From Escherichia phage FL20, in the sequence record PP400781: a stretch of DNA of 64,000 nt; one strand, 5' to 3'. The notes under the pieces were generated by a model. That model did not search any database, was not told the DNA's origin, and was given only the letters and a program-made list of their open reading frames with translations. The position numbers and the translations under genes were made by a program. Below, piece by piece: positions 6,998 through 64,000 of the stretch. The first letter of the stretch is position 1. Each line of letters opens with the position of its first letter.

Positions 6998-8340
6998 CCC
7001 TTCTTAAGTTCTTTAAGATCTTTCTTATATTCCTTCATTGCGGTCGTCTTTGTCCAATACTCATATTCACTATGATGTTTATCGGCATCTTTGACCAGTC
7101 GATCATACTCTTCTTGAGTAACGCTATACAATGGCATAGAAACTAGCTTATCGGCGTATGGACGCAGTTTTTCATGTCCATTGATGGATTGCATTACCTC
7201 GGCCTTTTTCTTTCCCTGTAGCTCGATTTCGCCCTTAATTACGCGATCGATAAATTCGGCTTTAGCCATTGCATAATTGTATGCTTCCAGCGTTTCCGCT
7301 TGCATCAATTCAATGCGTTTATCGACATACACTAATCGGATTTCGACGAATCGACGGATCAGATCGCTCGCTTTCTCGAATACTTCTACTAAACCACGTT
7401 CATTAACCACTACGATATTCTGGGCTACTAACTGCGTTAGTTTAAAATCCTTCATGATTTGCTCATGTCGAGCGGATTCATCTTCGCTTTTGAAATAATC
7501 GCGTTTCAGTGTTACTTCAAATCTGAATCCATCCTTAGAGCAACGGTCATTATATGAGACAATCAGATCTTTTTCTTCCAGTGCATCCAGTACCGCTACA
7601 TATTCTTCACGGTCGAACTTATAAGGAACTTCTGATATTGTCAGTTTAGTCTTGCCGTTTAGTTCATATGTACCCTCAAGAATCACACCATCGCGATCAT
7701 CTCGCGGGATAACTTTACCCGTGAATTTCGGGAATTGAACATTAGGTTCTTTATCCAGTTTTCCGGCAAGTGCTAGCTCTGTGCATTCAATGAGGCTTTC
7801 CAGTGAATGCGGTAAAATGTCAGTTTTATACCCTGAAGCAATACCACTAATACCATTAGCCAATACCATTGGCACAACTGGCAAGTAGAACGCTGGCGGG
7901 ATGTGTTCCAGATCTTCGTGCTTAGGTGCGCAATTCATATCTTTATAGATTTTAAAGAAGTTTTCATGCACACGAGCAAAGATATAACGTGCCGCTCCTG
8001 CTTTCTGGACTAAACGAGATCCGAAGTTACCTTGACCGTCAAGCAGTGGAGTATTATTGCTCCATGTATTCGCCATGAGTGATCCGGCTTCTACGGCATT
8101 AGTTTCGCCGTGGTGATACCCCAATTCAGCAACACCAGATCCAATATCTGCCATCTTACGGAATTTCTTACGGTCGCCTTTACTCTTTTGCAAAGCACAT
8201 TCCATAACAAAGCGTTGCACTGGTTTAAGCCCATCCACTAATTGAGGAATCCCGCGTTCCTCGGCAGAATAGATCGCATATTCCTTAGCTTCATTATGTA
8301 CAATGCTTTCAAGGCTGCGGTAAGTAACTGATTTATTCAT
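6994..8340 (-). CDS. 52: DNA topoisomerase II medium subunit gp52 (GyrA-like)
   Basis: GLKPVQRF, DGQGNFGS, ARYIFAR, YLPVVP motifs collinear with T4 gp52; ATG at 8338-8340 with GAGGTGA RBS (track start 8355 is GTG). Confidence 0.9.
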   Translation of the reverse strand: MNKSVTYRSLESIVHNEAKEYAIYSAEERGIPQLVDGLKPVQRFVMECALQKSKGDRKKFRKMADIGSGVAELGYHHGETNAVEAGSLMANTWSNNTPLLDGQGNFGSRLVQKAGAARYIFARVHENFFKIYKDMNCAPKHEDLEHIPPAFYLPVVPMVLANGISGIASGYKTDILPHSLESLIECTELALAGKLDKEPNVQFPKFTGKVIPRDDRDGVILEGTYELNGKTKLTISEVPYKFDREEYVAVLDALEEKDLIVSYNDRCSKDGFRFEVTLKRDYFKSEDESARHEQIMKDFKLTQLVAQNIVVVNERGLVEVFEKASDLIRRFVEIRLVYVDKRIELMQAETLEAYNYAMAKAEFIDRVIKGEIELQGKKKAEVMQSINGHEKLRPYADKLVSMPLYSVTQEEYDRLVKDADKHHSEYEYWTKTTAMKEYKKDLKELKKG

Positions 8341-18383: not shown

Positions 18384-18697
18384 TATCCTAAAATCCTCAC
18401 CTTGCGAACACAGATAGTATTGAGTTCTCGCCGTACCCGTTCTTTTTCATATTCAGGAATTTTATATTCGATACCATCCCGAACAATTTCAGAAGACCGG
18501 ATTATGCCAAATTTTCGTTTAGGTACAACCTTGTATTTCGGTTCACCCGCCAATAGACTCTCACAATAATCTATCTGATCACACATTGACGCTAACGCAG
18601 CATCATGTGTTTCGCAAGTTAGGACGCGACCTTTCGCGTCCACTGAGTATTGAAAGAATCCGTCTTTATCACGATAACATACAGCAAATACATGCAT
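18383..18697 (-). CDS. Hypothetical protein
   Basis: 104-aa ORF with start/stop overlaps to both neighbours. Confidence 0.45.
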   Translation of the reverse strand: MHVFAVCYRDKDGFFQYSVDAKGRVLTCETHDAALASMCDQIDYCESLLAGEPKYKVVPKRKFGIIRSSEIVRDGIEYKIPEYEKERVRRELNTICVRKVRILG

Positions 18698-19452
18698 TAT
18701 AAACCTACCTTCGCTTTCATCAATTCAATCCACGACGCATCAATCGGAAGCCCGTATTTCACGCGTTCTTTTTGTGCTGGCGTTAAGTTCTCATACTTAG
18801 AAAGAGATTCAATCAAAACGCTGGTATATTTTAGCACGATTTCGGTATTGTTTGCAATAGCCTTAAGTTTTTCTTCTTTCTTGTTGATTTCGCTAAGGGC
18901 TTGCTTGAGATCTGCAATTTTCTGATAACGTTCTTCCATACGGAAGAGAGTATTTTTAATCGCTCGCTCGGCTGCCTCTGCTTTCTCCGGTTCGTTGTGC
19001 TTTTTGTGGCGCTCGATTGCTAATTTCTTTTCTTCGATTGCCATTTCCTGATTTTTGATGCGATTCTCGTTAAGTTCGATCCACTCGATGTACTTCGCAC
19101 GTAGGGCAATTTCATCATCAGAAAGTTTACCGTTAGTTCCTAGTTCCTGGATCTCTTTAAGAGATTCGATAGTGTGATTGCCACGGAAAGAATTGTATTT
19201 CAGTTTAACCGGAATTACATTGCCATCAACATATCCCAGATTGCAATCAATGCGCTCTAAGGAGAGTCCGTCATCACCTTCACCGAAAGCCTCACCTGAA
19301 TAGGCACAATGAGTCTGGCGGTAAATGTTACGAACAGTGACTAAGCTCATAGAGAAGTCTTTGTTGCGACGTGAAGCACCAGCCATGATAGAGTTCAGCC
19401 GGAAAACAACCAACGCCAATTCTTCGTTAGATTTAAAAGCAAACAGTTTCAT
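18697..19452 (-). CDS. Hypothetical protein with coiled-coil C-terminal half
   Basis: 251 aa; N-terminal region with CAYSGEAFGEGDDGLSLERIDCNLGY; size and position between dda and 56 would fit T4 srd but sequence identity not verified. Confidence 0.4.
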   Translation of the reverse strand: MKLFAFKSNEELALVVFRLNSIMAGASRRNKDFSMSLVTVRNIYRQTHCAYSGEAFGEGDDGLSLERIDCNLGYVDGNVIPVKLKYNSFRGNHTIESLKEIQELGTNGKLSDDEIALRAKYIEWIELNENRIKNQEMAIEEKKLAIERHKKHNEPEKAEAAERAIKNTLFRMEERYQKIADLKQALSEINKKEEKLKAIANNTEIVLKYTSVLIESLSKYENLTPAQKERVKYGLPIDASWIELMKAKVGL

Positions 19453-19513: not shown

Positions 19514-20017
19514 TTAAATTAAAGAAAATTTGTAAATCTCTATCAGATCGCCGTTACACGCGTAAACTTCCTCGATCTCATCAAGGATCATGGTCGTCCC
19601 TGTCTTGTATATACACTCGCGCTCATCTGCCAACATAGCATACAAAGACAGTCGAGTAGTCGGATTGTCATACTCTTTAGACACCACTCGGTCAATAGCA
19701 TGTTCGTAATAATTCATGCAAGGTTTGGTAGGTTTTATTGCAATAATCTTTCCTGTTGCATAAACATCGGTTGCAAAGTCCTCTGCTGTTGATTGCAGTG
19801 GCGTAAAGCTCATAGGACGCTCTACAACGAAAGAATCACCTACAATTAAGGTATCCAGCTTACGGCCTTCTCTTTTGCTCACACCGCGATACAAGGCTTC
19901 ATGATGCACTAACCGTTCAGTCTTTTCAATCAATCCATTAAGGATCGACATATCGATATTTTCTTTAGAGTTCATCACTTCATCAATGATGTTAAGTTCT
20001 TCTGGTGTAAATTGCAT
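19514..20017 (-). CDS. Hypothetical protein (167 aa)
   Basis: ATG at 20015-20017 with GGAGG RBS; the track's earlier ATG lies inside a TTGACA-17-TATTAT promoter. Confidence 0.45.
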   Translation of the reverse strand: MQFTPEELNIIDEVMNSKENIDMSILNGLIEKTERLVHHEALYRGVSKREGRKLDTLIVGDSFVVERPMSFTPLQSTAEDFATDVYATGKIIAIKPTKPCMNYYEHAIDRVVSKEYDNPTTRLSLYAMLADERECIYKTGTTMILDEIEEVYACNGDLIEIYKFSLI

Positions 20018-20085
20018 AATAAAAAGCCTCCAATCTTTCGACGGGAGGCATAATAAAACCATGATAGAGTATTGTCAACTAATTT

Positions 20086-20604
20086 TTAGTAGCCGCGTTC
20101 TTGACGGGCGAAGTTTTCAGCATTTTTCAGATAGTACAGAATAAAGAGTTCTTTAGCGTCAATACCCAGCGGGATCATCTTTGACAGAATGAAGTGGATA
20201 GCGTCCACAAATTCAAATTTCACTTCAAGCTGATCTTCCGGTGACAGTTCAGAGAATTTACGCGCTCGCGCTTCCCCGTGGTTCTTTTTCCACATTTTCC
20301 AGATTGCACTTGCATCTTTACCGTTGGACATTCCACCCAGCGATGTGTAAAGCTCTCGTGTTTCGTCTGCGATAGCGTCATCCATCCGTTGCATCCAATC
20401 CAGCATTTCACCGCAAGTCTCTAGCTTCGTTGGATTTGGGACCCAATCAAATTTTTCGGATAGTGCAACCTGCAAACCAGTTTGCATTTCGAGCATCACC
20501 TGAAACGGATCTTTACCTTCTGCAATCGCGTGATGATATGCGGCGATAGCCGCGTTAATATCTTTTTCGTTAACCAGACCAGCACAAGAATTAAATTCTG
20601 ACAT
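20086..20604 (-). CDS. 56: dCTP pyrophosphatase gp56
   Basis: 172 aa; blocks DPFQVMLEMQ, KLETCGE, SPEDQLEVKFEFVDAIHFIL, FILYYLKNAENFARQERGY match T4 gp56; GAGGTGA RBS. Confidence 0.85.
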   Translation of the reverse strand: MSEFNSCAGLVNEKDINAAIAAYHHAIAEGKDPFQVMLEMQTGLQVALSEKFDWVPNPTKLETCGEMLDWMQRMDDAIADETRELYTSLGGMSNGKDASAIWKMWKKNHGEARARKFSELSPEDQLEVKFEFVDAIHFILSKMIPLGIDAKELFILYYLKNAENFARQERGY

Positions 20605-20618
20605 ATTCACCTCATTAA

Positions 20619-21647
20619 TTAAAATTTACAATATTTCATAAACCGCATTTTAGCCATCAGACCTTGTACGGTGTTCTCTTTGATATATTCCATGATCTGG
20701 TCGCGTGTAGCGCCCTCGTCCTGAATCATGGCGTTAACGTCTTTAGAATGCCACGGGCAACGGTCCCACAAAACAATCTTTTCCCCTGCATTGATAAACT
20801 TTTCCAGTCGGTGCATTGTATCGGCAGACCGTGGTTCCGCATCAAGTACAAACACTCGCTGATCAGGGAAAGGAATTTCATCTAATCCCAAAGTACCGCC
20901 AGTAATTGCACACCCGTTATCAATAAACAATGAATCGATCGGACCTTCTAAGAAATACACTGGTTTACTCGGATCGGCGCGTTCAAGACCATAGACCTTA
21001 CTCGCTAACTCATGAGTTTTAATCGTCATATATTTGGTCTTTCCGTAATCCTTTCTCAATGCTCGCCCCTGAATGGATTCTATCTTGTTCTCGCGGTTAA
21101 AGATAGGAATCACTAAACGCGGTTCAGGTTGTGGATTCTTGAAAGTATCAGCCTTAATGTGATTTGCTACCTTTTGCCATTCTCTCGTGAAATACAGAAG
21201 ATCCCATTTATCGTGAGGAATACAGCGATCACTGACATACTTTATTATAGGATGATTAGCCGGAAGAGTATCTAATCTCTCGCAGAAAGGCAATGTTTGC
21301 ACTTTCTTAATCTCCGGCTTTTCTACCTTTTTCAGTGGCTTGAACGTGGTGTTCTTGTGGTCGCCTTGTTCCTTCCGTCGTTCCATAAGCCATTCCCTGA
21401 ATAGGTCCGGCTTATACTGTTTGAGAAATTCACCTAACGGCTGATTGTAGTTACAGTTGAAACACGATGCGCGTAACGAGTCTTTATAAGTGTAGATTCT
21501 GAAACGCGCCATTGTGCTATTCTTTTTGGAATCTCCGCAGATCGGACATGAGCATACCAATGTAAATGATTGAGTGTGTAGGCGTTTAAAGTTTCTCTCA
21601 CCATATATCGCCTTCTCTGCAATCTCACAATCTGCGTAGTATATCAT
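20619..21647 (-). CDS. 61: DNA primase gp61
   Basis: 342 aa (same as T4); zinc ribbon CPICGDSKK...CFNCNY; TOPRIM region EPRLVIPIFN, LEGPIDSLFIDNGCAITGG, SKDVNAMI, IMEYIKENTVQGLMAKMR. Confidence 0.9.
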   Translation of the reverse strand: MIYYADCEIAEKAIYGERNFKRLHTQSFTLVCSCPICGDSKKNSTMARFRIYTYKDSLRASCFNCNYNQPLGEFLKQYKPDLFREWLMERRKEQGDHKNTTFKPLKKVEKPEIKKVQTLPFCERLDTLPANHPIIKYVSDRCIPHDKWDLLYFTREWQKVANHIKADTFKNPQPEPRLVIPIFNRENKIESIQGRALRKDYGKTKYMTIKTHELASKVYGLERADPSKPVYFLEGPIDSLFIDNGCAITGGTLGLDEIPFPDQRVFVLDAEPRSADTMHRLEKFINAGEKIVLWDRCPWHSKDVNAMIQDEGATRDQIMEYIKENTVQGLMAKMRFMKYCKF

Positions 21648-21651
21648 AATA

Positions 21652-22206
21652 TCACCTCTCTTTATATCGTGATGTTCTGGTCTGACTCTTCCATATTCTT
21701 CTTATGGTTATCGTGTGCACTCCGTATATTATAGCAAGTTCTTTTACAGACGCAACACCCTGTTTAGACCTGATCTCTTCTACTTGATGGTCAGTTAACT
21801 TTGCGTTTCCGTGTGTTTCTCCATAGTTTTTGTTCAATCCTTCTTCTTTAGCGTGTATAAGATTTTCTCTTTGTGTTGTCCACTCAAGGCCATACAGATC
21901 AAAATCCTTTTTATCACCAAATTTGTGATTTACTACAGGGTAGTTGTTTGGATTTGGTATAAATGCTTCTGCTAATGCCCTATGAATATAAACGCCGACG
22001 GTCTTTGGCTTGCCCGACTTTGTTCTGTTGGCGTAATCTCTTATATTACAAGAGACATAACCTTTTGTTATTTTAGTTGATCTGACCTTGCCAGTGGCTT
22101 TATTTCTTAGTTTACCATAAGAACTAATTTCATATTCTGGATACGATACGCCCATATAAACAAGGTCTTTCCATTCTTCTGGATGTTCATCACAATACCG
22201 TTTCAT
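21652..22206 (-). mobile_element. HNH homing endonuclease gene (free-standing)
   Basis: 184 aa; EISSYGKLRN (N-terminal homing-endonuclease-type motif), HNH core VNHKFGDKKDFDLYGLEWTTQRENL, C-terminal HTH; inserted between 61 and the 61.x-type small genes. Confidence 0.7.
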
Positions 22207-22221
22207 GATGTTATTAACCTC

Positions 22222-22425
22222 TTATAGCTCAAATTTCATGAAAGTTCCTACACTTTCATTTTCATTCTCTCCGTTTTCATCTAAGCCAAATTTATAGACA
22301 CTACCATCTGGCGATGTGTAAGAGAATACACGAAAACGGCCTACCGGGTCAAGTTCCATGAACTCATATTCTTTTCCTGCTTCAAACAGTGCATATGTGC
22401 TTTTAAGACATTTCATCGTAATCAT
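22222..22425 (-). CDS. Hypothetical small protein
   Basis: 67-aa ORF. Confidence 0.4.
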   Translation of the reverse strand: MITMKCLKSTYALFEAGKEYEFMELDPVGRFRVFSYTSPDGSVYKFGLDENGENENESVGTFMKFEL

Positions 22426-22745
22426 TTAAGCGCCACCGACAACAGAATGAGAACTACACCAACATACATTGTGATCTCGGATAACTTTTCTGTTTTTGTT
22501 TTGTGTCCAGATAATCCGAAAACAACAACACCGATAATAGCGGACAGCAAGCCAACGATAAACATGATGATACTAAGCACCGTCTTTCTCCTTTTTGCGT
22601 TTTTCTTTACCCGCTACACTAGGTCCACGATTGGTAATAGATCCGCTCGTTTCCCCTGCTGCGATCTTCTCAGGATTGCCGCCAGCATCGCCAGCGGTCA
22701 TATCTTCTTTGAGTTTATTTTCTTCAACAAACTGTTTAAATCCAA

Positions 22746-23123
22746 TCATAGAATAATCTCTTTCAGTAAGTCAACAATCTGGTCTTTCGTCAGTTTATCC
22801 TGATTCTCTACAATCTTGATAACACAAGCATTAACATCTTTTCGAGTCACGCGGGAGATCGTTTTAATACGATGAAACGGTTCGTAGAAATATACTGCTT
22901 CATTATAGAGCGCAGCAATTTTTCGACGCATTTGATCTTTATCTGACAAGAAAACAAGTGCTGTTTTATGACCTTCGACACCCGCCACGTTATATAGTTC
23001 AGCAACACCCCAGCGACCTTCCGGTTCAATCATTCCGGCGTGTTTACCGTCGATAAAAATAAGAATATCTCCGTTGAATGCGGTTTTGAATGCTACATCT
23101 TCCGGCGTAATCATATTTTTCAT
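22746..23123 (-). CDS. Hypothetical protein
   Basis: 125-aa ORF. Confidence 0.45.
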   Translation of the reverse strand: MKNMITPEDVAFKTAFNGDILIFIDGKHAGMIEPEGRWGVAELYNVAGVEGHKTALVFLSDKDQMRRKIAALYNEAVYFYEPFHRIKTISRVTRKDVNACVIKIVENQDKLTKDQIVDLLKEIIL

Positions 23124-23153
23124 AATATAGTCTCCTTAGAGTTTCATTATAGA

Positions 23154-23789
23154 TCAAGCGAACGTAGAAAGCAAATGTTTTGTTTCTTTCAGTTGTCGTT
23201 CAAGATCTTTGCGTTTCTCTTTAAGTTGCATTTTAGCATTATTTCGCTCTCTTGTAACCTCTTTATCAATGCTCTTATTCCAATTATCAATATCAGAATA
23301 AGTTGGCATACCCAATTCTAAACCTAATGCGGTTGGATACAGGGTAACAGTCCATAAACCGCCAATCTTCTTAAACAGGTCTGGGTGTAATGTACTACCT
23401 ACATCTTCCGGTGTCAACTCTTTTTCTTCTTTCAGTGGTGGGGTCTCGTCATATGGTTCCAGTGCATTTACTTTAATATCAGATACCTCATCAAAGAATC
23501 CGCGTACATCCGCAGGAAATACGCAAGCAATTTCCCAACCGTGATCACGCAGAGAAGTAATATTTTTCACCCCCCCACCATGTGTGATGATTGATGTGAC
23601 ATTGCCATCAAGGTCCACCGAATTTACGAGAAATGGCTTATCGTCTGTCAGATCATTATAAAACTGTGCTTCGGCTGTAGTCATCTCCAGAAACAGATCT
23701 CGGATCGGACGACCATCAGGTGCGTTACCTTCCTTGAGAGTATAAAAACGACTTACGATCCATTTTGGCGGTAAAGCATTAGCAATCAT
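23154..23789 (-). CDS. Hypothetical protein (61.x region)
   Basis: 211-aa ORF immediately upstream of 41; Lys/Glu-rich C-terminal coiled coil. Confidence 0.45.
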   Translation of the reverse strand: MIANALPPKWIVSRFYTLKEGNAPDGRPIRDLFLEMTTAEAQFYNDLTDDKPFLVNSVDLDGNVTSIITHGGGVKNITSLRDHGWEIACVFPADVRGFFDEVSDIKVNALEPYDETPPLKEEKELTPEDVGSTLHPDLFKKIGGLWTVTLYPTALGLELGMPTYSDIDNWNKSIDKEVTRERNNAKMQLKEKRKDLERQLKETKHLLSTFA

Positions 23790-23839
23790 GTTATATCTCC
23801 TATCAAATCATTCACCAGCGCCCCGCAGGGCGCATTTTA

Positions 23840-25252
23840 TTAGAAAGTCATGTTATTTGCTAGCTCGTCGAGTTTTTCTCGTTTCTCGGCTTGCTGTGCG
23901 CTTTGTGGTTTAACTTGTGCATTCTCCTGATCTGCGATCTGGTTTGGTACTTCATACCAACGCTGATTTCCTTTTTTCACACCAACGTTAAACCGTGAAT
24001 AGTAGTTCTTATCACCGTAACGAGATTTAATCTGCTTCATGAGTTGGACGCCCATTTTAGCCAGGTCTTCGGTTTCGATAACACCCAACATAAAATCTGC
24101 TGTAGCCGGAAGACCTGCTGATTCAGCGGTATCACTCATGTTAAGGTCGGAAGCATCCCAACCCGCGCGGGTAGTCTGTGCTGCAGTCCAACCAACAACA
24201 TCCCACTTAACAAAAAATCCTCGCAGTTCTTCCGCAATCGCCTTAACTAGTGTGTAACTATTTTCAGAGTATACACGCAAGCGAGACGATGCGCAAATCC
24301 CCAGATAGTCAACAATCACAACATCAGGTTTAAACTGTTTCTTGAGTCGCAATTCATTCATTAACGCTTCAAAGTGATTGGAGTTTGCGCCACCAGTCGG
24401 ATACTGCTTGATCATCAATTTTCCAACCGGACGATCTCCGATCTTCTTATTCTTAACACGCTTCATGCGTGCGGAATATTCCGCAAAAGAAACATTACCA
24501 TTATCCAATTCATCTAATGTAATGTCAAGCAAGTTTGCGTCGATACGTTTGGCTACGACATGCTCTGCCATCTCCATTGAGATATACAATACATCATAAC
24601 CACATTCCATATAATCCGCAGCAAGAGAACATAATCCAAGCGATTTACCAACATTTACACCAGCCAACAACACATTTAGCGTTTTTCTTTCCGCACCTCC
24701 TTTCGTGATTTTATTCAACATCGGCAGCTTAAACGGGATCTTATTCGCCTTAGTCTGATATAGCAAGAATCGTTTTTCAAAGTCATTAAACCAGTCATGA
24801 CCTACATCAGAATCAAACGTAATGGATAGTGCTTCCTGCATGATCTCAGGAATAGCACCCTCACTCGGCAATTTCTTATTCTGTTTCTCTTTTGGTAGTT
24901 GTGCGTTCGCCTGAATCTCTAGCGCCCGTGACATTGCATTATACATGGCACGGTCACGAATAAATTTTTCGGTTTCCTTCATTAACCAATCAAGGTCTTC
25001 CGGTGTATTCTCCAGCGAATCGAGAAGAGTTTTAGCCCCTTCATATGTTGTCTGATTGCCTCTCTCCTTGTCTAAAGCAATCTGTAATGCAGTTGGCGTA
25101 GGAATATTGGAATATTCGTCTACGTGCTTTTTAATCAGCTTATAAATCAGTTTTTCTTCGTCTTCGGTGAAGTAGTCCGCTTTAAGGTGAGGCCATACAT
25201 TCGTAAAGAATGCGCCATTGTAAATCAACTGTGAAAAGATGGTTTTAATCAT
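23840..25252 (-). CDS. 41: Replicative DNA helicase gp41 (DnaB-like)
   Basis: 470 aa; Walker A LLAGVNVGKSLGLCSLAADY; blocks YISMEMAE, KQYPTGGA, VIVDYLGIC, ESAGLPATADFMLGVIETE, IKSRYGDKN collinear with T4 gp41. Confidence 0.9.
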   Translation of the reverse strand: MIKTIFSQLIYNGAFFTNVWPHLKADYFTEDEEKLIYKLIKKHVDEYSNIPTPTALQIALDKERGNQTTYEGAKTLLDSLENTPEDLDWLMKETEKFIRDRAMYNAMSRALEIQANAQLPKEKQNKKLPSEGAIPEIMQEALSITFDSDVGHDWFNDFEKRFLLYQTKANKIPFKLPMLNKITKGGAERKTLNVLLAGVNVGKSLGLCSLAADYMECGYDVLYISMEMAEHVVAKRIDANLLDITLDELDNGNVSFAEYSARMKRVKNKKIGDRPVGKLMIKQYPTGGANSNHFEALMNELRLKKQFKPDVVIVDYLGICASSRLRVYSENSYTLVKAIAEELRGFFVKWDVVGWTAAQTTRAGWDASDLNMSDTAESAGLPATADFMLGVIETEDLAKMGVQLMKQIKSRYGDKNYYSRFNVGVKKGNQRWYEVPNQIADQENAQVKPQSAQQAEKREKLDELANNMTF

Positions 25253-36510: not shown

Positions 36511-37536
36511 CTAACTTTTTGCGCTATTTACCTCGGCTAAAAGTTCATCAGAAATACGCTTGACCGCCGCAAGTTCTTCCGGTTCTAGGTTTTGTTCTTC
36601 CAGATATTCATATACCATCTGAATAGTGCTTTTAACTTCAATAACACCTGTTTCCTGTGATGCGCTACTCTCCAGTTTATGGACCACTTTTAGCTTGTGT
36701 ACAACGGCCTCTAACGCGCTTTCTAACTTAGTTAACCCATTATCAGCAACCGTTGCAATAAGACGCACACTAAGCCCCTTAAAGCGTTCTACATCGATTT
36801 TATCATCTGACGGGTAAGTGATACGCACATGATAAGTTTTGTCATTCTGGATAAACTCTTTTTTGTGTGTATCGGTATCGAATACCCAAAACCCACGCGG
36901 ATCGTTTTCGTCACCCGCCGTTAGTGTGTATGGTGTACCGATATACGTTACATTACCGCCATCGCTGATAGTATGAAAATGACCGGAAAACACTTCACGG
37001 TATTTCTTGAGGAAGTCCGCGCTATAACCTTCGGATTTTAGCCCTTTATAGAAATAGTAACCGGACAATTCCCAATGGCCTACACAATATTCGCTGAATG
37101 AGTTTTGAATAAACTCTAAAATCTCTGATTTATTGTCATCACAAAACCACGGGAACAGATCAAATGATACACCATCAAAGGTAACTGTTTCCGGTTTATC
37201 GATAACCTTAATGCAATCATACTGGCTTAACACTTCACGCGGTGCGTTAGGCTGGATCTTGTTTCGTTTAAACATATCATGGTTCCCGACCGTGATATAA
37301 CAAGTAATTCCAGCCTCTTCCAGTAATGGGATGACCTTAGTACGGTTAAATTTCATGGTTTCATGGGTAATTGCTTTTCGGCAATCAAACCAATCCCCTG
37401 TTTGAATCCATGTCTTAATATTATGCTCTTTGGAGTATTCAACCGCCTTCTTGATGGTATCAAGAATATACTCATGCACCCACGGATCATCGCCACCGAT
37501 ACCAGTATGCAGATCACCTAAAAGCAAAATTTTCAT
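36511..37536 (-). CDS. 47: Recombination endonuclease subunit gp47 (Mre11/SbcD-like)
   Basis: 341 aa; phosphoesterase motifs GDLH, GDWFD, GNHD, GHWE, GHFH; collinear with T4 gp47. Confidence 0.9.
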   Translation of the reverse strand: MKILLLGDLHTGIGGDDPWVHEYILDTIKKAVEYSKEHNIKTWIQTGDWFDCRKAITHETMKFNRTKVIPLLEEAGITCYITVGNHDMFKRNKIQPNAPREVLSQYDCIKVIDKPETVTFDGVSFDLFPWFCDDNKSEILEFIQNSFSEYCVGHWELSGYYFYKGLKSEGYSADFLKKYREVFSGHFHTISDGGNVTYIGTPYTLTAGDENDPRGFWVFDTDTHKKEFIQNDKTYHVRITYPSDDKIDVERFKGLSVRLIATVADNGLTKLESALEAVVHKLKVVHKLESSASQETGVIEVKSTIQMVYEYLEEQNLEPEELAAVKRISDELLAEVNSAKS

Positions 37537-37626
37537 AGTCTCTTCCTCTCTTCGTTTTCGATGCTCTCACTATATCACAGAAAAATAAAAAGGGAAACCC
37601 CTTTCAGAGTCTCCCTTATAAAGCCA

Positions 37627-45153: not shown

Positions 45154-47016
45154 TTACATGTGCTTAACGCGGTTTACCATCTCGGAGTGTTTCCCGTGGT
45201 TAAATGGACGCAGATCAACAGATCCAAGATATCCACTAACGCGACGGATAACATTCATCTTTTCCAGATTGTCATTGCCGCAATCAGGACAAACAAAACC
45301 AGACTCGGTTGCTCTCATTTCCTTAGTAGATCCGCATACATGACATACATCAGAAGGAGTATTAACACCGAAGTAGTGCAATTTATCCATTGCATAGTCT
45401 ACTACAGTTTCAAGACCTTTCAGGTTGTTTTTCATGTCTGGGAACTCAACATAAGAGATCATGCCACCGGACGCCAGCCAGTGATAATCTTTCTCAAAGT
45501 CGATTTTCTCAAATGGAGTGACTTTACGGTCTACGTCAAGGTGGAATGAGTTGGTGTACCAGTCTTTATCGGTAGCACCCTTAACAATACCAAATTTCTC
45601 TCTGTCCAGTCGATTAAATCGATAGCAAAGACTCTCGGCTGGCGTACCGTAAAGACTAAACCCAAGTCCGGTTTCGTCCTTCCATTTTTCAGTATAATGA
45701 CGCAAGATCTTAAGAATATGTTTACCGTATCGCTGCGCATCTTCCGAATCAAACGGATGAACACCAAACAGGACGCTCAATACCTCATGTAAACCAATAT
45801 ATCCAAGAGAGATACTAGCGCGACCATCTTTCAACACTTCCAAAATTTCATCGTTTTGATGAATACGGAAAAACGCACCTTCGGTATACAGCACCGGGGC
45901 AACATTGGCTTTAGCCCCTTTTAAAGCGTCTACGCGACTCATGAGCGCATCAAAGCAAATAGGCATACGATTAGCTAGCTCTTGTTCGAATAGCTCAATT
46001 CTGCGCATTACAGACGCTTTACCAGCACGACGAGCGGCAATAAGGGCAATACGCGGAAGATTCAGAGTCACAACACCTAAGTTATTACGTCCGTCTAATA
46101 CTTCTTCGCCTTTCTCATTATGCCACACACCCAGGAAGCTACGACAACCCATCGGGCTAACCGGAACACTAGATCCAGTGATACTACGGTTATTCTTCGC
46201 AGAGATATAATCAGGGTAAAGACGCTTACTAGAACATTCCAATGCAAGTTGCTTAATGTCGTAGTTCGGATCTTCCGGTTTAAGGTTTAATCCTTCTTCT
46301 AAGAACATCACCAGCTTAGGAAACACCGGAGTGATACCATCTTTACCTAAACCTTTAGTTCGAACGTTCAGGATCGCTTTCTGAATCAGTTTTTCTTCCC
46401 AGCTAGTACCCATACCAAAGGTTAAAGTCACAAAAGGAGTTTGACCGTTGGTGGAGAACAAAGTGTTGATTTCATATTCCAACGCTTGATACCCGTCTAA
46501 CGTTTCTTTTTCTGTCTTCTCTTGTGCATAGAGAGTATCAGCTTTGATTCCGTAGGTTTCGGCATCAGCAAGGTGTTTATGATATGTTTTCTTAACATAC
46601 GGTGCTAACACCTGATCGATGTTTGCAATTGTGGTCCCGCCATATTGATGACTTGCCACCTGTGCGATAATTTGAGCGGTTACAGCACAAGCAACGCCGA
46701 TTGATTTCGGACTTTCGATTTGTGCGCTACCCAATTTAAAACCATTCTCTAGCATGTCTTTAAGATTAACAAGACAGCAGTTAGTAAACGGCATAGCGGG
46801 TGCATAATCCATATCATGATAATGAATATCACCGTCTACATGCGCTTTATAGATGTGCTCAGGTAACACGGTTTTAGCAATCTGTTTAGACACAGCACCA
46901 GCAATCAGATCTCGACGTGTCGGGAATGTTCGCGCGTCTTTGTTCGCGTTCTCTTTGCTTACTTCGTTTTCTTTACCCGTTGCGATCTCTGTAATGTCTT
47001 TGATTAGTTTTTCCAT
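45154..47016 (-). CDS. nrdD: Anaerobic ribonucleoside-triphosphate reductase NrdD (class III, glycyl radical), intron-free
   Basis: 620 aa; long identical blocks with T4 NrdD (FTNCCLV, SHQYGGTT, NGQTPFVT, GSSVPVSPMGCRSFL, GVVTLNLPRIAL, TPAE, LCYRF, glycyl radical motif RRVSGYLG); single continuous ORF. Confidence 0.95.
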   Translation of the reverse strand: MEKLIKDITEIATGKENEVSKENANKDARTFPTRRDLIAGAVSKQIAKTVLPEHIYKAHVDGDIHYHDMDYAPAMPFTNCCLVNLKDMLENGFKLGSAQIESPKSIGVACAVTAQIIAQVASHQYGGTTIANIDQVLAPYVKKTYHKHLADAETYGIKADTLYAQEKTEKETLDGYQALEYEINTLFSTNGQTPFVTLTFGMGTSWEEKLIQKAILNVRTKGLGKDGITPVFPKLVMFLEEGLNLKPEDPNYDIKQLALECSSKRLYPDYISAKNNRSITGSSVPVSPMGCRSFLGVWHNEKGEEVLDGRNNLGVVTLNLPRIALIAARRAGKASVMRRIELFEQELANRMPICFDALMSRVDALKGAKANVAPVLYTEGAFFRIHQNDEILEVLKDGRASISLGYIGLHEVLSVLFGVHPFDSEDAQRYGKHILKILRHYTEKWKDETGLGFSLYGTPAESLCYRFNRLDREKFGIVKGATDKDWYTNSFHLDVDRKVTPFEKIDFEKDYHWLASGGMISYVEFPDMKNNLKGLETVVDYAMDKLHYFGVNTPSDVCHVCGSTKEMRATESGFVCPDCGNDNLEKMNVIRRVSGYLGSVDLRPFNHGKHSEMVNRVKHM

Positions 47017-56126: not shown

Positions 56127-56156
56127 ATTTGATTCTCCTTAGTTGGTATGGTTATC

Positions 56157-56184
56157 ATTATACGGGGATTTCTCCCCGTGTCAA
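56157..56184 (-). promoter_or_regulatory. Sigma70-type early promoter with dyad spacer
   Basis: TTGACA-cggggagaaatccccg-TATAAT. Confidence 0.55.
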
Positions 56185-56187
56185 CAA

Positions 56188-56463
56188 TTAAATGATCTCT
56201 GCTTCACCGTTAAGGAAGAAAGACCATGTTTTGTTAGGATAACGAAGCGCCCATGATTCAGCAGTTTTAACACCAGCTTCGAACAATTGACGGCTGGTTA
56301 CTTTAGCCATACCATCTTCGATGGCAACGTTTTCAATAATCATCGGGTACTTAGCGCCACGCATGAAACCGAAGCCAGCGGAAGATTTGATGATTTTAAC
56401 AGTTGCCATTTTTGATTCTCCTAGAAAGTGTCGTGTTTCGATGGGTGTATTATGCAATAACAC
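56188..56463 (-). CDS. Small paralog family member C
   Basis: Internal start MATVKIIKSSAGFGFMRGAKYPMIIEN...; AGGAGAATCAAAA leader. Confidence 0.4.
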   Translation of the reverse strand: MLLHNTPIETRHFLGESKMATVKIIKSSAGFGFMRGAKYPMIIENVAIEDGMAKVTSRQLFEAGVKTAESWALRYPNKTWSFFLNGEAEII

Positions 56464-62821: not shown

Positions 62822-63520
62822 CTAACCACGGGTATAGTGTTCCAGAACAACTGTCAGATGAATATATTCTAATAGATCTTTCCAAAAGTCAACATCTGGT
62901 TCTTCCGGCATACCGTTTTTCTTTGCCTCTTCACGCGCGAGTTTAACACGCTCGTAGAGATCTTTCAATTCTTCCCGCACATTATCAAAGGTTCTTTCTC
63001 CTAACTTACACGCTAAAATAGAAGAACGTCGCGCGAGCGGGAATTGTAGATCACCTGTCTGATAGATTTCAAGTAGCTGATAACCAACACGCAGAGCATG
63101 AGAAAGATCTTTCCAGTTACTGAAATACTTTTCAGATTTGGCTACCTGCTTTTTGAGATAGCCAGACAAACCCCACATACCAACATGATAGAATTTATCT
63201 CGATGTGTTCGGATGTATTCCCATTCTCTGGAGGATTCAATCAACATGTTACTAGGAGCGTGCACCATGTCAATAGCGCCGATATCGCCTTTACATGCCA
63301 GATTGATAAACCGTTTTAGACTGAACATATTAACGTCAATATCGTCTTTGGTGTTCTTGATACCTTGACCGCTAGTGCTTTGGTCATAGTGTTCTTTCAT
63401 CGATCCTAAGATAATTTCTTTCGCAGTCGGAACAAAGATACCACGATAATCTTTATCTGAATTTTCAGTATCAAGGCCGTACAAGTGAGATCCGAAGACC
63501 ATTTTAACCATTGTATGCAT
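62822..63520 (-). CDS. Predicted nucleotidyltransferase-fold protein
   Basis: 232 aa; N-terminal MVFGSHLYGLDTENSDKDYRGIFVP fits the minimal NTase signature hG[GS]...[DE]h[DE]h. Confidence 0.45.
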   Translation of the reverse strand: MHTMVKMVFGSHLYGLDTENSDKDYRGIFVPTAKEIILGSMKEHYDQSTSGQGIKNTKDDIDVNMFSLKRFINLACKGDIGAIDMVHAPSNMLIESSREWEYIRTHRDKFYHVGMWGLSGYLKKQVAKSEKYFSNWKDLSHALRVGYQLLEIYQTGDLQFPLARRSSILACKLGERTFDNVREELKDLYERVKLAREEAKKNGMPEEPDVDFWKDLLEYIHLTVVLEHYTRG

Positions 63521-63538: not shown

Positions 63539-64000
63539 TTAAACGTATTCAGCAACAACATTATGTTTAAAATTACCGCTCCTTTTTGGATTTGGATTTT
63601 TCAATCGACTATGTATTAAATTTTTGTTGTATCCGGTTGCTTTAGACGCTTCGCCAATACTTTGATAAACAACACCATTAACACGAATCGGACGAGACTT
63701 ATTAAACAGTTGATTCAATCCGGCATCATATGCATGGTTTTGGTTTTCTTGCCTCGTTGCGATCTCAAGATTCCAAACACAATTACAAGATTTTACCCCA
63801 CTTTTATGATTAATTTCAAGACCTTCACAATCACCTATAAAGTGTTCAGCAACTAGTCTATGAATATAGCGATATTTCTTACTTTCCCCATCATGCAAGC
63901 ATACATTATAATAACCATCACCAGCGCGTTTAGGTCGGAGTAGTTTACCTTTAACACGTTTTATAGTAGGGAACTCACCAAATTGATTTCTCTGGATAAA
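63539..64000 (-). mobile_element. HNH homing endonuclease gene, 5' end beyond window
   Basis: The frame stays open upstream of the track ATG to the window edge (...RPKRAGDGYYNVCLHDGESKKYRYIHRLVAEHFIG...EINHKSGVKSCNCVWNLEIATRQENQNH); HNH core plus C-terminal NUMOD-like HTH. Confidence 0.65.

Follow-up and report, generated by a model that had tools for sequence, protein, structure and literature searches.

The sequence analysed here is a stretch of 64,000 nucleotides (nt) from the Escherichia phage FL20 (accession number PP400781), referred to below as the window, and the element in question is a free-standing open reading frame (ORF) of 184 amino acids (aa), named HE1, located next to the DNA primase gene 61. 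Over positions 20000-24000 the window shows 96-97% identity to members of the genus Krischvirus that infect Escherichia (RB49, Phi1, ECD7, KMB43 and others), and its gene order is the one annotated in RB49, namely modB, 56, 61, ORF017c, ORF018c, 61.1, dc1, dc2 and 41. By these comparisons the phage is assigned to Krischvirus, which makes it RB49-like and T4-related, so that the T-even setting proposed in an earlier reading made from the letters alone (the sequence-only reading) holds for a T4-type phage and does not hold in the strict sense. The gene 61 ORF codes for 342 aa and shares about 97% nt identity with gene 61 of RB49 and ECD7. HE1 is intact, with an ATG start, a TGA stop and neither stop codons nor frameshifts in the window copy; it ends 4 nt before the gene 61 ATG (21647) and is an independent ORF between two genes, being located inside neither an intron nor an intein. 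The positions of this gene, of its neighbours and of a second endonuclease gene, named HE2, at the window end are given in Table 1.

Table 1 Features of the HE1 and HE2 loci, in window positions
Feature	Position	Strand	Basis
Free-standing homing endonuclease gene HE1, I-HmuI-like, 184 aa	21652..22206	-	ORF, phrog_59, AlphaFold2 model
5'-terminal 59 nt of HE1, fully identical to the ECD7-type gene and followed by a recombination joint	22148..22206	-	Alignment; remainder about 46-68% nt identity
NUMOD4/N-terminal beta-sheet DNA-binding domain of HE1, aa 10-56	22039..22179	-	Pfam PF07463; strands 12-73 in the model
HNH (beta-beta-alpha-metal) core of HE1, aa 72-118, motif VVNHKFGDKKDFDLYGLEWTTQRENLIH	21853..21993	-	HNH_3 sub-threshold, alignment, model
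C-terminal three-helix (helix-turn-helix-like) putative DNA-binding domain of HE1, aa 139-172	21691..21792	-	Model helices 139-147, 154-161, 165-172
Insert of 565 nt, absent from RB49-type genomes, lying between the gene 61 Shine-Dalgarno sequence and start codon	21647..22211	-	Comparison with RB49
GAGG, Shine-Dalgarno sequence formerly serving gene 61, 11 nt ahead of the HE1 ATG in the window	22218..22221	-	Sequence compared with RB49
GAGAGG in the last codons of HE1, putative replacement gene 61 Shine-Dalgarno sequence, 7 nt before the ATG	21655..21660	-	Sequence
RB49 ORF017c homologue, upstream flank of HE1	22222..22425	-	Comparison with RB49
Gene 61, DNA primase, probable HE1 target gene	20619..21647	-	Annotated so in RB49 and ECD7
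Recoded, co-converted stretch of gene 61 (codons 1-61, including the Zn-ribbon)	21465..21647	-	Difference counts against RB49
HE2, HNH_3 homing endonuclease gene (197 aa) truncated by the window end, last 153 codons present	63539..64000	-	Pfam, MIZ4 match
nrdC.11 nucleotidyltransferase, downstream flank of HE2	62822..63520	-	Comparison of relatives

HE1 matches the PHROG family phrog_59 "HNH endonuclease" over aa 9-177 with an E-value (E) of 1.1e-31 and possesses a NUMOD4 domain (31 bits against a cutoff of 23.4, E 3e-7). In a sequence search of PDB, I-HmuI, the HNH nicking homing endonuclease of Bacillus phage SPO1, alone fell below E 1e-3 (PDB 1u3e, E 8e-4), and the same structure was the sole significant match in a Foldseek search of PDB with an AlphaFold2 model of HE1, the alignment covering 183 columns, i.e. 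the full length (E 1.5e-7, probability 1.00). The model was produced with 34 homologues, has a mean predicted local distance difference test score (pLDDT) of 88.7 and contains a beta-beta-alpha unit formed by strands 91-94 and 107-110 and helix 112-121, as well as a C-terminal domain which aligns with that of I-HmuI in the full-length match. The C-terminus of HE1 also gave sub-threshold matches to helix-turn-helix (HTH) families (DUF7769 with E 0.0011, HTH_DeoR, AbiEi_4, and phrog_517 "HTH DNA binding protein" with E 9e-4), and an NCBIfam search returned no match for HE1 or HE2. HE1 and I-HmuI therefore share the order of a NUMOD4 beta-sheet, a beta-beta-alpha-metal HNH core and a C-terminal HTH, and their general-base His and helix Asn align; they differ in that their identity is 22%, I-HmuI is intron-encoded and HE1 is free-standing, and the Asp-His pair of I-HmuI is Asn-His in HE1.

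His94 of HE1 occupies an invariant column of the 34-sequence alignment and aligns with the DH of I-HmuI, and Asn93 and Asn115 occupy invariant or nearly invariant ones. The column of Asn115, which is predicted to bind metal from the alpha helix, is at least 90% conserved, and 271 of 349 related cores, drawn from the top matches of an exhaustive search with HE1, have N here. The three residues match the Asp74-His75 pair and Asn96 of I-HmuI, whose catalytic residues reportedly have the roles described with the 1U3E structure.

On sequence and predicted fold, HE1 is assigned to the I-HmuI-like NUMOD4-HNH-HTH family as a free-standing homing endonuclease, of a sort ordinary for T4-type phages. The sequence-only reading had placed an intact HNH homing endonuclease gene beside gene 61, and the ORF, phrog_59, NUMOD4 and the fold agree with it down to the exact coordinates. 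The identical protein has already been deposited in GenBank as "HNH homing endonuclease [Escherichia phage FL20]" (XAO15175.1) and is present on 36 contigs; the best protein match to HE1 in the phage collection searched, which does not include FL20, reaches 55.7%. At E <= 1e-3 the family comprises 77,353 cluster representatives, and the best library matches (P0043-P0190) include many proteins of 300-840 aa with two to five tandem NUMOD4-HNH module matches.

The distance from the ORF017c stop to the gene 61 ATG is 9 nt in RB49 (GAGGTTAAT) and 574 nt in the window, which gives an insert of 565 nt. Judging by the position of the two Shine-Dalgarno sequences listed in Table 1, the HE1 cassette would use the old ribosome-binding site of gene 61 and carry a replacement for it. 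A scan of positions 21300-22900 detected three promoter-like sites, with 4.0 expected, and no terminators, thus showing no sign of an independent transcription unit, and this background level fits promoter-less cassettes such as the T4 mob genes (PMC2988022). The T4 endonucleases MobA-MobE, known from intronless homing, resemble HE1 in being encoded by promoter-less HNH cassettes located in intergenic gaps beside essential genes of nucleotide metabolism or replication (PMC2988022); no close sequence relationship between them and HE1 was tested or found, and none of the endonucleases listed for T4 is placed beside gene 61 (Table 1 in PMC2988022).

HE1 was found in none of the 58 Krischvirus records in GenBank. 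Another allele occupies its site in seven of them, which represent six phages (ECD7, Cognac, Whisky, KMB43, TB34 and SAP), and the 565-nt insert is missing from RB49, Phi1 and 25 further records having an unbroken span of about 3.4 kb across the site. All six endonuclease-less records inspected, namely RB49, Phi1, AV108, JK32, G2248 and JEP8, have the 9-nt gap. In public assemblies HE1 is located at the same site in all the carrier contigs inspected with the exception of contig L028, where a 152-aa variant (P0042) is followed by a ribulose-phosphate epimerase gene; that contig is probably a scaffold mis-join and was ignored. Another contig of 943 nt (L019/P0003, ENA ERZ27234653) combines the ORF017c flank with ~250 nt from the start of HE1 (83 aa), which are followed by an unrelated AT-rich HNH and C-terminus and a downstream flank other than gene 61. 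It was not used, as it may be a real recombinant, a domain swap from another context or an assembly chimera.

The ECD7-type allele, represented by the ECD7 protein "HNH_1" (ASJ80111.1) and its copies, is 187 aa long and 56% identical to HE1 at the protein level. It shares with HE1 the site between ORF017c and gene 61, the first 59 nt (HE1 aa 1-20 match the ECD7 type), the domain order and the presence of a converted tract at the 5' end of gene 61, whereas its motif is the canonical VNHIDGNKRNHDLYNLEW (HNH_3, 30 bits) and its tract is shorter and less diverged, with 13-31 differences out of 183 nt compared to 57 for HE1. The other close relative, the JSE-type endonuclease (ACL78050.1), is 52% identical to HE1 overall and closer in the block of HNH and linker (HE1 aa 82-146; 78% aa and 74% nt identity); it differs in its locus, which is vs.6/nrdC.11, in its canonical motif HKDGNKQNYDLYNLEW and in its N- and C-terminal parts. 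The HE1 gene thus appears to be a mosaic with an ECD7-type start and an HNH-linker block closest to the JSE-type endonuclease of the nrdC.11 site.

Compared to RB49, gene 61 of the window has 57 differences in nt 1-183 and only 12 in the remaining 846 nt, all 12 of them synonymous; in windows of 50 nt the identity is 94-100% everywhere except for 68-74% in 21450-21649. The amino acid is kept in 55 of the 61 codons of the recoded tract and changed in the other six. Out of 54 conserved degenerate codons 35 differ, which is close to the 31.5 +/- 3.5 expected for independent draws and therefore points to synonymous saturation and not to anti-correlation. A Nei-Gojobori proportion of synonymous differences (pS) above 1 for codons 1-61 was considered as a sign of selection for difference and rejected, since two-fold sites inflate pS at saturation. 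The ORF017c homologue on the other side of HE1 was likewise compared with RB49 and no diverged tract was found in it.

Four other HE1 carriers have exactly the same recoded tract, and two more (L025 and L023) depart from it at one to four positions. No donor with more than 80% nt identity was found among 50,697 phage records and the next genus shares 46% aa identity with the window in this region, so the lineage that donated the tract would be an unsampled one. With respect to all sequenced relatives the converted primase segment appears synonymously saturated, which is unusual, though modestly so. The comparison with relatives lacking the endonuclease, proposed in the sequence-only reading, thus yielded a 9-nt empty site and a diverged gene 61 5' end, and it is well supported by these alignments that the primase gene flanking HE1 bears a textbook conversion tract and was co-converted.

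The ECD7-type carriers provide graded versions of such a tract. The variant part of gene 61 extends to about nt 96 in Whisky, to about nt 138 in KMB43 and TB34 and to about nt 183 in ECD7 and Cognac; two phages having no endonuclease at the site also carry it, JK32 as a variant tract and AV108 at nt 60-138 only. The ECD7-type tracts intersect at gene 61 nt ~60-96, and for this type, and for this type only, the intersection makes it likely that the cleavage site is located there. The variant gene 61 allele is present in all seven carrier records of the ECD7-type endonuclease and in two of the 51 non-carriers (Fisher P 1.2e-7), and the 49 records with the RB49-type allele are uniform across the region. 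In TB34 and AV108 there is another annotated HNH endonuclease gene of 564 nt between genes 61 and 56 (L012 1-121 and L013 1-121, respectively), so gene 61 can have endonuclease sites on both flanks in Krischvirus.

A comparable situation was observed elsewhere in the window. In RB49 a 570-nt gene for a putative HNH-AP2 endonuclease (ORF040c) lies immediately upstream of gene 47. This endonuclease gene is missing in the window, where there is a clean empty site near 37537, and ~200 nt at the 5' end of gene 47 (37300-37499) show 82-84% identity to RB49, compared to 94-100% around them. This is the conversion signature of gene 61 with the roles reversed.

Presence and absence alone cannot strictly polarise the event at gene 61, and no donor with the same tract was found among the phage records searched, so HE1 might be ancestral and lost from most Krischvirus, the 5' divergence of gene 61 being the result of an unrelated recombination with a distant phage. 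This is considered very unlikely because the two confirmed alleles share the site and the first 59 nt and are otherwise only ~56% identical, because the endonuclease-less relatives inspected have the Shine-Dalgarno sequence directly before gene 61 in the 9-nt gap and the RB49-type records are uniform, and because the tract is tied to endonuclease carriage, with the same pattern at gene 47 beside RB49's own endonuclease.

The second HNH gene reported by the sequence-only reading at the window end was recognized as a canonical HNH_3 endonuclease (E 1.2e-10 for aa 44-87 of the fragment, window 63740-63871). Phage MIZ4 has a 197-aa "HNH endonuclease" with which the HE2 fragment shares 99.3% aa identity and which in full length matches phrog_59 with E 8e-41; HE2 is thus assigned as a canonical member of the HE1 family located in the vs.6/nrdC.11 gap. 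Among the 58 relatives HE2 is present in eight and the site is empty in most; the HE1-like JSE-type gene, carried by JSE, 011D4, Whisky and phiS, occupies it in JSE. T4 mobD is listed at nrdC.11/mobD.1 (PMC2988022), which makes the neighbourhood of HE2 a recurrent landing site. No converted tract beside HE2 was found within the window, where nrdC.11 hardly differs between carriers and non-carriers. The diverged flank of this site is the 3' ~250 nt of vs.6 in MIZ4, Phi1 and JSE, which is located on the other side of the endonuclease, beyond position 64000. The 3' half of vs.6 (L004 4182-4595, L020 3306-3722, L003 2531-2947) differs strongly between these three phages and includes an RVSGYA-type segment, which we take to resemble a glycyl-radical motif.

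Taken together, both genes are free-standing homing endonucleases of a known family, as indicated by Pfam and PHROG and for HE1 also by the fold, and their sites are polymorphic within the genus. Their sporadic occurrence, with the HE1 insert missing from most Krischvirus and HE2 present in 8 of 58 records, bears out the earlier suggestion that they are mobile insertions, and the suggestion that neighbouring genes were co-converted stands for gene 61 (57/183 versus 12/846 differences); for HE2 no such tract is visible inside the window.

As for selection, the window copy of HE1 was compared with the most diverged full-length carrier, L023. There are 22 differences, 19 of which are synonymous, including those at K100, E108 and H118 inside the motif region, and three are conservative non-synonymous changes (V41I, H140R and V151I); the synonymous divergence (dS) is 0.185, the non-synonymous divergence (dN) is 0.0069 and their ratio omega is 0.037 (binomial P 1e-10). 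By this measure HE1 is under strong purifying selection and not decaying. The dS of HE1 in L023 is similar to that of gene 61 (0.208), indicating a long residence of HE1 in the L023 lineage. Among other carriers, the block consisting of HE1 and gene 61 nt 1-183 has only one or two differences, with 12-24 expected from the rates in the flanks (L008, L021, L024 and L026; Poisson P from 1e-5 to 2e-9, assuming a uniform substitution rate along the region). This island of low diversity suggests a recent spread of HE1 and would fit homing into diverged backgrounds.

The reading preferred here, to which we assign a probability of about 65%, is that HE1 is an active, probably nicking, homing enzyme, and we infer its activity, its target site and its preferential inheritance from the observations above. 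HE1 would be a cassette with no promoter of its own, lodged in the 9 nt that separate the gene 61 ribosome-binding site from the gene 61 ATG. When phages with and without the endonuclease infect the same cell, the HE1 protein would bind the endonuclease-less allele and nick or cut it within the first ~180 nt of gene 61, and repair templated by the carrier genome would then transfer HE1 along with the neighbouring 5' portion of gene 61. Dense and mostly synonymous recoding of these 183 nt would protect the carrier's own copy. By taking the old gene 61 Shine-Dalgarno sequence at a poor spacing and supplying a new one, the cassette would leave the essential primase expressed.

Several observations weigh against an active enzyme. 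The HE1 motif is VVNHKFGDKKDFDLYGLEW, as opposed to, e.g., HKDGNKQNYDLYNLEW in relatives, and unlike I-HmuI it lacks both the central Asn, replaced by Gly106, and the Asp at His+2, replaced by Phe96. The central position is at least 90% N in the 34-sequence alignment, and in the 349 related cores it is N in 348, S in one and G in none; the His+2 position is D or N in 344 of these cores and F in only two (Asp at His+4 is common, 93/349). Due to this atypical Gly106/Phe96 motif HE1 reaches only 15.4 bits with Pfam HNH_3 (E 0.014; the cutoff is 24.8), compared to 30.0 bits for the ECD7 allele, 23.6, just below the cutoff, for the JSE allele and 41.3 for HE2. There is also a variant with a +2-nt frameshift, 142 aa in length and with the C-terminal domain removed, on 23 contigs, the two inspected being from the adjacent runs SRR18652178 and SRR18652179 of one sample set. 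Finally, the uniform rate assumed in the Poisson test bears on the low-diversity island, which hitchhiking or ordinary recombination could also produce.

The frameshifted variant, another one with a 12-nt in-frame deletion and the degenerate motif could all be expected if HE1 had entered the degenerating stage of the homing cycle and were being lost, with the ORF of the window not yet broken. Yet 19 synonymous against three conservative non-synonymous changes are hardly compatible with this, the omega value refuting decay for the sampled lineages, and the exact HE1 protein is found on 36 contigs, with the window copy free of stop codons and frameshifts; decay of the window gene is regarded as highly improbable.

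More weight is given to the possibility, unlikely as it is, that HE1 is a nuclease-impaired or dead descendant retained as a sequence-specific DNA binder, e.g. one occupying or protecting the gene 61 target, regulating the operon or excluding competitors, which spread by ordinary recombination or in trans by means of another endonuclease. The motif is suggestive of it, with a Gly unique among the 349 cores in place of the central Asn, a Phe in place of Asp/Asn, a sub-threshold HNH_3 score and the retention of the odd motif in all nine sequence variants of the clade, and the low omega shows that some function is kept without showing which. A precedent for the mobilisation of a defunct endonuclease in trans is reported for T4 MobE and I-TevIII (PMC2790892). 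On the other hand, His94, Asn115 and Asn93 are retained, and a dead enzyme would have no reason to keep them; the beta-beta-alpha core is confidently predicted (block pLDDT 93-97 over residues 81-110), in a model which does not register the effects of point substitutions; and the low-diversity island fits active drive. Moreover, in an article describing the roles of HNH residues including the central Asn, central-Asn mutants of other HNH enzymes are partly active, the GVE2 mutant N109A showing a ~60% loss and requiring more Mn2+ and the ColE7 N560 mutants being cited as a further case (PMC5304195). The sign of a pseudogene named by the sequence-only reading, a loss of the HNH catalytic residues, is present only in part: the catalytic His94 and the metal-binding Asn115 are kept and the gene is under purifying selection, but the structural central Asn is gone and HNH_3 is below threshold. 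As judged from the alignments, HE1 is unusual in having lost the central Asn while being under strong purifying selection, its departure from the ordinary being modest.

Some further observations concern other parts of the phage genomes. A 251-aa ORF at 18697-19452 on the minus strand with an HNH/endonuclease VII-like stretch (LSLERIDCNLGYVDGNV) was considered as a third endonuclease gene and rejected, as it corresponds to RB49 srd and codes for the conserved Srd anti-sigma factor (phrog_1400, E 6e-74; the matches to HNH and endonuclease VII families are weaker). Some relatives that carry HE1 (contig L008 at 7045-7974; L026 and L027 at their ends) have a further 309-aa ORF with a weak NUMOD3 match, which is encoded on the other strand and separates gene 56 from modB. 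Gene 56 of L008 is only 52-68% identical to that of the window at the nt level. The ORF, which is absent from the window, resembles a third endonuclease gene whose neighbour was converted. The RB49 gene 38 (adhesin/assembly) region (RB49 45367-46143) is gone from the collinear position of the window (908-nt gap, window 56150-56188), and an 85%-identical copy of it is located in the opposite orientation at 775-1186, seemingly relocated or replaced.

It is a bolder and rather doubtful suggestion that HE1 is a natural HNH variant, either working with a re-built active-site loop or domesticated as a cleavage-attenuated binder that guards gene 61 from its ECD7-type rival, with the 5' end of gene 61 being a long-lived battleground. 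If this were true, the rivalry of endonuclease alleles would preserve gene 61 alleles which are strongly diverged, randomised at synonymous sites and unseen in any sequenced phage lineage. Under the preferred reading of an active homing enzyme, the locus would be a clean natural case of intronless homing in RB49-like phages, with an exact insertion point and both takeover and replacement of a ribosome-binding site, and the same case would display conversion tracts of graded length and, beside a gene essential for replication, endonuclease alleles that compete for a single site. It would also explain a block of local hyper-divergence in the primase gene, which may otherwise mislead phylogenies and recombination analyses of coliphages that are candidates for therapy, and the Asn-to-Gly variant under purifying selection would allow a test of how far the H-N-H motif can be reduced in a homing endonuclease that still works.

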